Sequence record: PP925828.1
DNA length: 64,000 nt
DNA from: Escherichia phage SpoonbillGilly
Strand: one strand, 5' to 3'
This document shows, piece by piece, positions 34,381 through 39,805 of the stretch. Both the position numbers and the translations under genes were made by a program. Each line of letters starts with the position of its first letter. The stretch's first letter is position 1. A model generated the notes under the pieces. The model worked only from the letters and a program-made list of their open reading frames with translations. It was not told the origin of the DNA and ran no database searches.

Positions 34381-34417
34381 AAAACCCCAGCGGATTGTCC
34401 GCTGGGGTTTTGTTTTA
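34381..34417. terminator. Bidirectional intrinsic terminator at the early/late junction
   Basis: AAAA-CCCCAGCGGA-ttgt-TCCGCTGGGG-TTTTGTTTT; A-run upstream and T-run downstream serve both convergent transcripts. Confidence 0.8.
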
Positions 34418-36709
34418 TTTAGCTTTTAGCTTTCTAATTTCTAATTTGGCAGAATCCAGTTCTTGCTTAAGAGTTGTAACAGCAGCTATTAAGTCAGAAA
34501 TCAAAGCAGATGTACTAACGTTTAATACCTCTTCTCCTTCCCCAACAGTTGATGAATATACATAGGTAGGATCTACATCACGTAATTCCTGAGCAATATA
34601 TCCTCTATCATGCCTACCTCCAGCTTTCCAGTCAAACTCTCTAGGAGTGATTTTAGTTATTCTATCTAAGGCCCCTTCTGGTGCTCTAACTATATTCTCC
34701 TTAAGTTTGATATCTGAACCTTCAATAGCAATAGTACCTGCAGTGGAAGCAATCCTACCATCATTAGCTCTAAAGAACCACTGTTTTAACCCCAATGAAT
34801 TAGAATATGTAGATAAGGCTACAGCATCCAATACAGTAGAACCACTACGAATAGCACCGAACTGGAACCTATCGTCATACCACCATCCTTGCAGCCAGTT
34901 AACATAACCACCAGAACCTACAGCACCTGGGTTATTATTCAACTCGATAGCATTTCTCTCTGCTTGAGATACACCACAACCTCCACCAGGCATAGTATGT
35001 AGATCTTGAGCAGTAGTAGCAGCATCTAAATGTAGGCCGTTGGCACCAAAAGCTTTTATCCAGGATTTATTATTAATCGAAGTAGGTAAGTTAACAACAC
35101 CATTAGATTGTACCTCTAGGTTGGCAAGATCCCCTGTCTCATTATTATAGGACTGAAGAACAGCAACACTATAAGGATTACCAAATCTTTTGGCACTTAC
35201 TATTAAAGCTGAGTGATTAACTGTTTCCCCTATTCTATAATCACTATATGCAAAACCACCATAAGTAGTAGTCCCATCAGCAGGACGTGTAGAGTCTCCA
35301 TTAATAACATGATACTGTGAACCAGCAGCGTTAAAAGAACCGTTAGCACGGATAATCCAAAGACCAGTAACAGCAGTAGGGCGTACCTCTGGTGTACCAT
35401 CTCTTCCGTATACTGGGCTACCTGCTGCAGCATTTAGAGAATATCCATACTTCTGAGTATCTACAAAATCCGCTGTCCCACTTCCTCCAGAATAATTAGC
35501 ATCTGGGGCATCAGGCCATCCTGTATGGTTTATACCAGAGAAAATACCAGTAGCATACATTCCATGGTTATTTGGTACTCTTACAGAAAAGTTACCTATT
35601 ATATTAGGGGCAGCACTCATATTTAGCGCCCCAGAGGCAAATACTCCATTAATACTACCACCACCGTCACCACGAAGGAATGCTGCATAAGGGGTATCAT
35701 ATCCTGCAAAAGGAATTCCATCCATAGTATCCCCATTTCTTCTAACGCCGTTTAAATCAGGTACACGGAAGTTAGTAGAGCCATCTCCTGTAGAATATGC
35801 ACCTCTATTCCCTGTTTTTTGGTAATCCTGACCGTAGGAGTTAGTTATCCACTCTGTATCACTAACACTTACGAATAATCCACCTGAAACTGCTGACCAT
35901 AAATCCCTAGTCCTGGTATCAGTACGACTTACTAGTTGACCATCTGCAGGAATATACCCAGCGGGTAGCTTAGTACGGTTACCATTAAACCACTCAACAG
36001 CACCTATGAAGTTATTCATAACTCCACTCATGCTAGCGTTTCCGCCACCAGAAATATTAGATAGTTGCCTTACAGTTACAGCATCATAAGGAGCTTGCCC
36101 ATCTGCAGCTAATGGTAATGGTTTACCATCCATTAGCTTAACTAGTGCCTCTGCTGCACTTAAAGCACCTGTACCACCTTGAGTAATAGGTAGTGCATAG
36201 TTAGTGCCACCACCCTCAGCAGTAACTCCCCAAGCTCCCTCATTACTAATATAAAGTAACTTTGAGCCATCAGGAGATCCCATATATGAGACATCTGTTG
36301 ACTTAGTGAGATGATTTAATTCTAGTGCTAAACGTGCTCCATCTGGAGAAGTAGCACCTGTACCACCTTGAGATACTGTAATAGCCTTAGTAAGTGCATT
36401 TAATTCTGTAATATCATTGTTAGCACCCTTAGCCGCCTTGGCACTTAGACTACTATTAATACTACCAATTGCAGTATTAATATTTCCAATAGCTTCAGTA
36501 TTACTTTGAATAGAGCTATCTATTCCAGTAAGACGAGTAGCTAGAGCTTGCTGATCTAAATTATACTTAGAGATTTGTAAGTACTTAGAAGTAAGCACAA
36601 CAGCGCCAGCCTCTCCGTCAATAGAGAAAACCCCTGCAACAGCAGCATCCCTGTTAACTACAATATATGGCGCCATTGCGCCAGATTTAGGCATTAAATT
36701 ACGTGACAT
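34415..36709 (-). CDS. L-shaped tail fibre protein, second gene (LtfB-like) with C-terminal intramolecular chaperone domain
   Basis: 764 aa; repeated QGGTGA...A(L/R) fibre motifs; C-terminal chaperone-like region EGSDIKLKENI...ELDSAKLEIRKLKAK. Confidence 0.75.
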   Translation of the reverse strand: MSRNLMPKSGAMAPYIVVNRDAAVAGVFSIDGEAGAVVLTSKYLQISKYNLDQQALATRLTGIDSSIQSNTEAIGNINTAIGSINSSLSAKAAKGANNDITELNALTKAITVSQGGTGATSPDGARLALELNHLTKSTDVSYMGSPDGSKLLYISNEGAWGVTAEGGGTNYALPITQGGTGALSAAEALVKLMDGKPLPLAADGQAPYDAVTVRQLSNISGGGNASMSGVMNNFIGAVEWFNGNRTKLPAGYIPADGQLVSRTDTRTRDLWSAVSGGLFVSVSDTEWITNSYGQDYQKTGNRGAYSTGDGSTNFRVPDLNGVRRNGDTMDGIPFAGYDTPYAAFLRGDGGGSINGVFASGALNMSAAPNIIGNFSVRVPNNHGMYATGIFSGINHTGWPDAPDANYSGGSGTADFVDTQKYGYSLNAAAGSPVYGRDGTPEVRPTAVTGLWIIRANGSFNAAGSQYHVINGDSTRPADGTTTYGGFAYSDYRIGETVNHSALIVSAKRFGNPYSVAVLQSYNNETGDLANLEVQSNGVVNLPTSINNKSWIKAFGANGLHLDAATTAQDLHTMPGGGCGVSQAERNAIELNNNPGAVGSGGYVNWLQGWWYDDRFQFGAIRSGSTVLDAVALSTYSNSLGLKQWFFRANDGRIASTAGTIAIEGSDIKLKENIVRAPEGALDRITKITPREFDWKAGGRHDRGYIAQELRDVDPTYVYSSTVGEGEEVLNVSTSALISDLIAAVTTLKQELDSAKLEIRKLKAK

Positions 36710-39700: not shown

Positions 39701-39805
39701 AGAATTACCTAAAACTACTGTATATTTAGGATACTTACTAGCAGTAGTTGTAGTGTCATCTATGTTCAGAATCTGCTGTACAATAATTTTAGTTTTAAGT
39801 GCCAT
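36752..39805 (-). CDS. L-shaped tail fibre protein, first gene (LtfA-like) with Ala/Ser/Glu-rich repeat region and C-terminal intramolecular chaperone domain
   Basis: 1017 aa; N-terminal (A/E)KDSE repeats and coiled coil; GGTGA motifs (IEKGGTGAIN, IKHGGTGAVN, LERGGTGATD); C-terminal SDIRLKAQLKEI...chaperone-like domain. Confidence 0.8.
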   Translation of the reverse strand: MALKTKIIVQQILNIDDTTTTASKYPKYTVVLGNSISSITAGELTAAVEAAAGSAAAAKDSEIAAKDSENKAKDSEIQAGIHADASEASATQSAASAAESEKQAKLSQGSAENSAASALESKNFKDASELAAQNAEQSKILAEQAQRAAEAAQSGAQASENKASAFATQAAASSASAGDFAAAAKQSELNAKTSETNAATSEVEAETQAETATTEANRAKAEADRAAQIVDSKLDKEDISGFIKVYKTKEEADADVSSRVLGEKILVWNQTDSKYGWYKVAGTAEAPVLELVETEQKLVSINNVHADDAGNVQITLPGGNPSLWLGEVTWFPYDKDSGVGYPGVLPADGREVLRVDYPDTWEAIEAGLIPSVTEEQWQAGATLYFSTGNGTTTFRLPDMMQGQAFRAAAKGEENAGNIKEQIPYITMINGKAPADDGTITLGNAADKNVWNGVDGEVLLRGAFGLGGAGLILNEPDAVSFFKAMRAFGSGYYRNDSESNPVIPKYSAGFYSKTADTHTFICSAYGNGVTFVATVNDALLDGENPTVHTNTLYGTANKPDLNTDTQGVLGIEKGGTGAINVDQARGALKVPTFMTVLEGGPEQSLVYSPDFTKALKVDNSTEWGLANVADGSPIPLSIKHGGTGAVNASQIRANLNIQGVKCVTSQIPSDFNALSSPDDNLNLLIANNGVWGVQSTKGDIKPLLLERGGTGATDQNGARHNLGLATNHSPVFAGIDLQGLNGTTSGIAVLRNRNAEGTQISYSRVYNEIQGSVAKTTIQTTREGGGTNYFQIDEYGLITNVRAIRCAPSNVGGEGFTVGVVPGGAFTAWRDRPAGMIVEHPSDDVAVNVLKSVRWGGDWVMGIDAARYGAGGCEAHLNVKGTTYTFNDVGYASAVQWVSTSDIRLKAQLKEILSAKEKVKALQGYTYFKRNNLNEDEYSFYSEEAGLIAQDVITVLPEAVYKVEETDYLSISYSGVTALLTNAMKEVMADAEAQEARISNLEAELAELKALVATLVNK
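39579..39641 (-). repeat. Three tandem ~21-bp direct repeats inside the ltfA 5' region (coordinates approximate)
   Basis: ctgaatctttagctttatt / cagaatctttagctgctatt / cagagtctttagcagcagc encode the KDSEIAA/KDSENKA heptads. Confidence 0.6.

Follow-up and report, generated by a model that had tools for sequence, protein, structure and literature searches.

Known two-protein fibres and the SpoonbillGilly locus

The lateral tail fibres of the Markadamsvirinae are made up of either one large polypeptide or two or more proteins (PMC8594841; PMC10644984). T5 has a single ltf gene, encoding the protein pb1 of 1396 amino acids (aa), and so does BF23 (PMC10644984). A two-protein fibre was defined genetically in DT57C by Golomidova et al. 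in 2016 (PMC4728585). Its branching was inferred from the similarity of LtfA aa 223-471 to gp14 of phage phiEco32 and of LtfB residues 1-45 to gp15, and the C-terminal region of LtfA and LtfB were found to give different O-antigen specificities (PMC4728585). Both the branched model and the separate specificities are consistent with the cryo-electron microscopy of DT57C (Ayala et al. 2023, PDB 8hqz), in which a dodecameric ring of LtfC is interlaced with the N-termini of LtfA and the LtfA coiled coil begins at about residue 40 (PMC10713586). Here, we analyzed the corresponding locus in Escherichia phage SpoonbillGilly (sequence record PP925828.1), by employing a stretch of 64,000 nucleotides (nt), hereafter the window. 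Two genes lie in tandem on its minus strand, namely ltfA (36752..39805), encoding a proximal or main fibre protein of 1017 aa, and ltfB (34415..36709), encoding a second fibre protein of 764 aa.

Homology indicates, at a probability that we put at roughly 0.85, that the locus would specify a DT57C-type, two-component branched L-shaped fibre, with both tips unmasked by self-cleaving chaperones and two glycan receptors bound before the pb5-type interaction. This architecture has already been described (2016), is structurally supported (2023) and is widespread, and conceptually nothing is added to it here. The only new element of the locus is the mosaic tip allele of LtfA, with a tip related to a Drexlerviridae lateral fibre.

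A preceding sequence-only reading of this DNA had given the coordinates and lengths of the two tandem open reading frames (ORFs) exactly, and its statement that T5 has one long ltf gene for a protein of about 1400 aa is accurate. Its choice of BF23 as a two-gene comparison is not, as BF23 resembles T5 in this respect. The comparison with the DT57C locus, which it had also proposed, showed that both modules from which branching was inferred, i.e. the gp14-like and the gp15-like one, are present. Its interpretation as a branched or dual-specificity fibre is in essence supported by homology, which points to a DT57C-type LtfA/LtfB locus, while we infer the branching, the cleavage and the dual specificity.

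The locus shares with DT57C and DT571/2 (Tequintavirus) the presence of LtfA, LtfB and LtfC in the same order and on the same strand, as well as, within LtfA, the N-terminus that binds LtfC and the gp14-like domain, while the distal parts are unrelated or only weakly related. The genus also differs, SpoonbillGilly being Epseptimavirus-like, with Salmonella as its likely host. The nearest relatives identified by megablast of the locus belong to Epseptimavirus sepoy (Sds2, Sepoy, S132 and others), matching 83% of the query at about 95% nt identity. These are Salmonella phages, e.g. Sepoy (MK728825) and Sds2 (MW357609), with a two-gene ltf locus of their own.

Domain organization of LtfA and LtfB

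The best PDB match of LtfA was the DT57C tail-tip entry (8hqz_d, E-value 2e-209). Over aa 1-433 the protein is 80% identical to DT57C LtfA, with no close similarity to it further on, and aa 1-50 are identical in the two phages. N-terminal strands (aa 1-40, 39686..39805), the DT57C equivalents of which insert into the LtfC ring (PMC10713586), are followed by an Ala/Ser/Glu-rich trimeric coiled coil with 33% Ala (aa 41-232, 39110..39685). Next comes the proposed docking site for LtfB, a domain resembling phiEco32 gp14 and SU10 gp12 and containing a tail-collar-like motif (aa 233-435, 38501..39109). The similarity to phiEco32 gp14 (aa 239-452) extends over LtfA aa 223-433, with 41% identity and an E-value of 3e-44, and the domain also matches SU10 gp12 (7z47_D, E-value 1.6e-40). 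T5 pb1 is homologous to LtfA on either side of this domain, i.e. in the N-terminal attachment and coiled-coil region (47% identity between LtfA aa 1-230 and pb1 aa 1-215) and in a shared shaft segment (41% between LtfA aa 458-558 and pb1 aa 386-487), but no significant match to the gp14-like domain itself was found in pb1. That T5 pb1 lacks both the domain and a partner protein is consistent with a role of the domain as the docking site for LtfB.

Within the coiled coil, a 21-nt tandem repeat of 2.8 copies (39576-39634) codes for AAKDSEx heptads (aa ~58-77). In the Epseptimavirus phage 37, a deletion in the ltf gene, delta-A56-A97, was reported to have evolved in vivo (bioRxiv 10.1101/2023.11.08.566301), which suggests that the repeat region of the LtfA coiled coil is deletion-prone.

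The more distal half of LtfA starts with a shaft segment (aa 436-565, 38111..38500) that is 98-100% identical to Sepoy LtfA and partly shared with T5 pb1. Two shaft modules of 67 aa with GGTGA motifs occupy aa 566-699 (37709..38110), where the first GGTGA marks the 5' junction of a swapped cassette (see below). GGTG(A) motifs occur at residues 573, 640 and 707, that is, with a period of 67 aa, and GGTGA forms part of a more extended conserved module, h-x-h-x-x-GGTGA-x5-AR-x2-L ... SPD ... N-x-G-x-WG. LtfA lacks the 19-aa tandem motif of its DT57C counterpart, with the 67-aa modules standing in place of that motif, and T5 pb1 contains zero copies of the GGTGA motif. The protein is completed by a distal tip, presumed to be a receptor-binding domain (aa 700-899, 37109..37708), and an intramolecular chaperone of the Peptidase_S74 type (aa 900-1017 plus stop, 36752..37108) with a predicted scissile bond T899|S900 and Lys at 905.

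LtfB opens with a conserved N-terminal attachment module (aa 1-45, 36575..36709), in which 30 out of 45 residues (66.7%) are identical to aa 1-45 of phiEco32 gp15 (E-value 2e-19). Identity to DT57C LtfB is 82% over aa 1-60 but only 35% overall; the entire protein is 98.4-98.7% identical to LtfB of Sepoy and Sds2. One full and one partial GGTGA module are found at aa 108-237 (35999..36388), with motifs at residues 115 and 178, so that GGTGA-type repeats indeed occur in both fibre proteins, as read from the sequence beforehand. The distal region (aa 238-664, 34718..35998), which resembles the tips of DT57C LtfA and LtfB, combines a presumed receptor-binding tip with a tail-collar-like motif; the Pfam domain Collar (PF07484) was identified at aa 299-321 with 24.2 bits against a cutoff of 24. 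At the C-terminus there is again a Peptidase_S74 intramolecular chaperone (aa 665-764 plus stop, 34415..34717), with a predicted scissile bond G664|S665 and Lys at 670.

An exact 20-nt direct repeat (36164-36183 and 36353-36372) codes for both QGGTGA motifs of LtfB, and a 75% copy of it is found in ltfA at 37874. A search for direct repeats between ltfA and ltfB, of the long type that causes fusion deletions in DT57C, yielded nothing beyond this repeat within ltfB and weak copies at other places. Spontaneous LtfA-LtfB fusion deletions should therefore be rarer here than in DT57C.

Outside the T5-like phages, the closest counterpart is the adjacent gene pair gp14/gp15 of the Kuravirus phiEco32 (gp12/gp13 in SU10). 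The gp14-like domain and the GGTGA modules are common to gp14 and LtfA, while gp15 shares its N-terminus, body and chaperone with LtfB. No match to the LtfA chaperone region was found in gp14 in this comparison. As phiEco32 is a podovirus with fibres attached to an adaptor protein, the N-terminus of gp14 differs from that of LtfA.

C-terminal chaperone domains

Both fibre proteins were previously read as ending in segments typical of intramolecular chaperones, and the motifs named for these, STSDIRLKAQLKEI in LtfA and GSDIKLKENIVRA in LtfB, were recovered. Pfam agrees with this view: Peptidase_S74 (PF13884, 'chaperone of endosialidase'), with a gathering score of 22 bits, was identified in LtfA at aa 900-960 (41.1 bits, E-value 2e-10) and in LtfB at aa 665-717 (43.9 bits, E-value 3e-11), the domains starting 118 and 100 residues from the respective C-terminal ends. 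The Ser/Lys pair is intact in both, as it is in the two Peptidase_S74-terminated fibre proteins of DT57C and in the C-terminal chaperone of T5 pb1 (Garcia-Doval et al. 2015), where the Lys likewise follows the Ser at +5.

The last 170 residues of LtfA and LtfB were aligned with T5 pb1, DT57C LtfA and LtfB, Sepoy LtfA and LtfB, and phiEco32 gp15. In this alignment, T899|S900...K905 of LtfA and G664|S665...K670 of LtfB coincide with T1263|S1264...K1269 of T5 pb1. In another alignment, which includes five database homologues, the Ser, Asp and Lys of the S-D-x3-K motif are invariant in all seven sequences. Ser1264 of pb1 is the scissile and catalytic serine, the substitution S1264A blocks processing, and Lys1269 activates Ser1264; the T5 tip competes for the receptor only once the chaperone has been removed (PMC4690869). 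Autocleavage is predicted to give mature forms of 899 residues for LtfA (aa 1-899) and 664 residues for LtfB (aa 1-664).

An AlphaFold2 (AF2) model of LtfA aa 890-1017 (mean predicted local distance difference test score, pLDDT, 80.5) contains a small alpha/beta unit and, C-terminal to it, a helix of 45 residues. This is the fold typical of such chaperones, in which the long terminal helix builds the trimeric coiled coil. The sole significant PDB matches of the model were three chains of the MyRF intramolecular-chaperone auto-processing (ICA) domain (7dc3; probability 1.0, best E-value 1.7e-4, TM-scores 0.57-0.59). EndoNF (3gw6) matches the model weakly, and gp37 of S16 (6f45) matches the LtfA C-terminus by sequence.

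A replaced distal cassette in LtfA

Nucleotide homology to Sepoy and Sds2 extends over 33000-37120 (94-95% identity) and 38078-42900 (97%), leaving a gap at 37120-38078, where 957 nt in SpoonbillGilly stand against about 1120 nt in the two relatives. The intergenic hairpin and the terminator of the locus are the same in the Sepoy-type phages, but their LtfA is longer (1071 aa against 1017 aa) and its chaperone domain is only about 70-94% identical. The replaced segment corresponds to LtfA aa ~577-895; it begins at the first GGTGA motif and stops shortly ahead of the site at which the chaperone would be cleaved off. With LtfB being 98.4-98.7% identical to its Sepoy and Sds2 counterparts and the LtfA cassette being replaced, one adhesin (LtfB) has therefore been kept and the other (the distal cassette of LtfA) exchanged relative to the closest relatives.

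Sliding-window identity against four fibres revealed LtfA as a mosaic. Sepoy LtfA is the closest relative over aa 1-560 (95-100% identity), LtfA of JNwz02, another Epseptimavirus, over aa 561-640 (90-95%), a 691-aa fibre of the Drexlerviridae phage W011D over aa 721-920 (80-95%), and the Sepoy chaperone over aa 921-1017 (70-94%). The stretch at aa 641-720 is without a close relative (15-48%). For this stretch (37646-37885), located between the JNwz02-like and the W011D-like parts, the phage collection held no close relative, and its identity stays at 15-48% to all four of the compared fibres.

The W011D fibre is 84% identical at the nucleotide level over 37100-37688, and at the protein level its aa 249-685 are 64% identical to LtfA aa 579-1017; it has the same tip-plus-chaperone module as LtfA. 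Phage vB_EcoS_W011D belongs to another phage family, though, and its single fibre gene has a different genomic context and a different N-terminal attachment region. No close full-length match to LtfA aa 560-900 was found in a collection of 5.8 billion proteins, the best hits being 60-63% identical over 28-58% of the query. The exact LtfA and LtfB sequences are absent from a collection of 15 billion sequences.

A recent inter-family exchange, in which a W011D-type E. coli tip was grafted onto a Salmonella-type Epseptimavirus fibre, would leave the phage with a Salmonella-type LtfB and an E. coli-type LtfA, and hence with a cross-genus host range. We regard this scenario as tentative and rather doubtful; a literature search on W011D returned no receptor information.

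Fibre architecture and alternative explanations

In the branched arrangement, ltfC, ltfA and ltfB would be late genes expressed from one strand up to a bidirectional terminator. The first ~40 residues of an LtfA trimer would be inserted into the collar that twelve LtfC subunits form around the tail tip, with the Ala-rich coiled coil (aa 41-232) projecting outward. The gp14-like domain (aa 233-435) would then dock the conserved 45-residue N-terminus of an LtfB trimer, and LtfB would by virtue of this docking form a side branch. From there both proteins would run through GGTGA shaft modules to distal receptor-binding tips of their own, each tip being folded with the help of its own chaperone, which would cleave itself at Ser900 (LtfA) or Ser665 (LtfB) by means of the Ser-Lys pair; its removal would expose the binding tip. 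The result would be three fibres, each equipped with two distinct adhesins that bind surface glycans, most likely O-antigens, in a reversible manner before irreversible binding by a separate pb5-type protein.

A number of points weigh against this reading. The branch in DT57C itself draws on genetics and weak density only, and the homologous gp12 and gp13 of SU10 were interpreted as making up a single fibre with an elbow and no branch, gp12 being its proximal and gp13 its distal half (PMC9509320). Autocleavage is only a prediction in SpoonbillGilly, and the residue preceding the LtfB catalytic serine is Gly, not Thr as in T5 pb1, where Asp1239 and Arg1250 further upstream are sensor residues. 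The LtfA tip also offers little structural guidance: an AF2 monomer of aa 702-1017, built on a nine-sequence alignment, had a mean pLDDT of 48.9, with values below 50 in the tip, and is unusable there. A Foldseek search of the PDB with the tip model gave nothing at an E-value of 0.001 or less, weak T4 gp34 matches not being meaningful.

If LtfB instead were the distal half of a serial fibre, joined end-to-end to LtfA with one elbow and one functional tip, the arrangement would be that described for the long fibres of SU10, with a proximal gp12 and a distal gp13 meeting at one elbow (PMC9509320). The match of LtfA aa 233-435 to SU10 gp12 and that of the LtfB N-terminus to phiEco32 gp15 would fit such a layout. 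It is disfavored because LtfA has a tip and a chaperone of its own: the ~580 residues beyond the gp14-like domain, with that tip and a Ser/Lys chaperone, would be pointless in a purely proximal protein. The different O-antigen specificities of the LtfA C-terminal region and LtfB in DT57C (PMC4728585) also speak against it, and the part exchanged in SpoonbillGilly is the LtfA tip, in line with selection acting on a receptor-binding end. We consider an end-to-end fibre improbable. LtfB could also be an independent fibre, attached not to LtfA but to another tail component, e.g. the LtfC collar, pb4 or pb3. A direct contact between LtfA and LtfB has never been resolved, and weak densities in DT57C might stem from LtfB that is bent back against the tail tip (PMC10713586), although the same study found no robust LtfB density on the virion core. 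Moreover, the gp14-like and gp15-like modules co-occur in a siphovirus and a podovirus with otherwise unrelated tails, and T5, being without LtfB, is also without the gp14-like domain. Separate attachment of LtfB is in our view just as improbable as the serial arrangement.

The sequence-only reading had itself suggested that a sequencing error might have produced an artificial stop between the two ORFs. Nothing but the shortness of the spacer between ltfA and ltfB (36710..36751, minus strand; 42 nt) speaks in favor of a sequencing or assembly error having broken up one long pb1-like gene by a stop or a frameshift. The two ORFs are offset by 43 nt and are therefore in different frames. In the spacer, an 8-bp GC-rich hairpin (36726-36747) precedes the ribosome-binding site AAGGA, which lies 7 nt ahead of the ltfB ATG, and the same arrangement of stop, hairpin, ribosome-binding site and ATG recurs in the independent genomes of Sepoy, Sds2, DT57C and phiEco32. 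In addition, LtfA closes with a complete chaperone domain, LtfB opens with a conserved N-terminal module, and LtfB was found to have no similarity to T5 pb1. With the frames different and the same stop, spacer and start present in independent genomes, the suggested error fails as an explanation, and we deem an artefactual split extremely unlikely. A single pb1-type polypeptide of ~1400 aa was also considered and rejected, as there are two ORFs in different frames and only aa 1-230 and 458-558 of LtfA resemble pb1.

A hairpin with AAGG is found at the equivalent position in Sepoy, in DT57C and in the podovirus phiEco32, with differing stem sequences. Such a hairpin might set the ratio of LtfA to LtfB, either as an attenuator or by affecting mRNA stability.

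For the branched DT57C-type fibre, the ltf locus shows annotators and phage-therapy developers where the O-antigen specificity sits, probably in the form of two specificities. That of LtfB is common to the Sepoy-like Salmonella phages, and the tip of LtfA represents a new allele, related to the fibre of a coliphage. For host-range engineering, the cassette offers practical splice points at its clean boundaries, i.e. at the GGTGA motif and at the chaperone. The bullet-shaped, polymannose-binding tip of T5 has no counterpart here.

Occurrence of the two-gene layout

Besides SpoonbillGilly, the two-gene layout was found in the independent genomes of Sepoy, Sds2, DT57C, JNwz02 and phiEco32. In 154 phage records, the gp14-like domain of LtfA was found with an identity of at least 60%, and LtfC reached the same threshold in 470, both counts being approximate and including GenBank/RefSeq duplicates. 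Compared with each other, these numbers suggest that roughly a third of the sequenced T5-like records have a DT57C-type fibre.

Neighboring genes and terminal receptor

The order of genes at the locus is pb4, ltfC, ltfA, ltfB and terminator, the same as in DT57C, Sepoy and Sds2, and its location is that of ltf in T5. Upstream of ltfA on the minus strand, ltfC (39805..40227) encodes a 140-aa collar protein that anchors the lateral fibres (Pfam LtfC, PF23926, E-value 1.9e-15) and is 95% identical to DT57C LtfC; its TAA stop and the ATG of ltfA share one base (TAATG). It is preceded by a gene matching the T5 straight-fibre protein pb4 (40233..42290, minus strand). At the other end lies a strong bidirectional intrinsic terminator (34381-34411, both strands) with a perfect 14-bp stem and T-runs on both strands, situated between convergent early (plus-strand) and late (minus-strand) transcription units. 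The early genes facing it are D14, the D15 flap endonuclease and dUTPase, and a terminator is annotated at the equivalent place in Sepoy and T5. A change of sign in the GC skew coincides with it. A promoter scan of the locus gave 23 sites against 21.7 expected, i.e. the background level.

The sequence-only reading had further taken the ltf locus to be the primary host-range determinant. This stands for the first, reversible receptor (O-antigen) but not for the terminal receptor, for which a separate pb5-type receptor-binding tail protein of 593 aa (PHROG 4815 'receptor binding tail protein', E-value 1.6e-281) is encoded on the minus strand at 60708-62489, upstream of the terminase gene. Next to it and in divergent orientation, a small Llp-like lipoprotein with a signal peptide and an LTGC lipobox is encoded on the plus strand at 62573-62839, and is probably an Llp-type receptor blocker. 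The pb5-type/Llp-like pair, and not the ltf locus, sets the terminal receptor.

No tRNA genes were identified by ARAGORN in the whole window. From position 1 to 64000, it spans replication and recombination genes, tail and head genes, and then the terminase and pb5-type receptor-binding genes.

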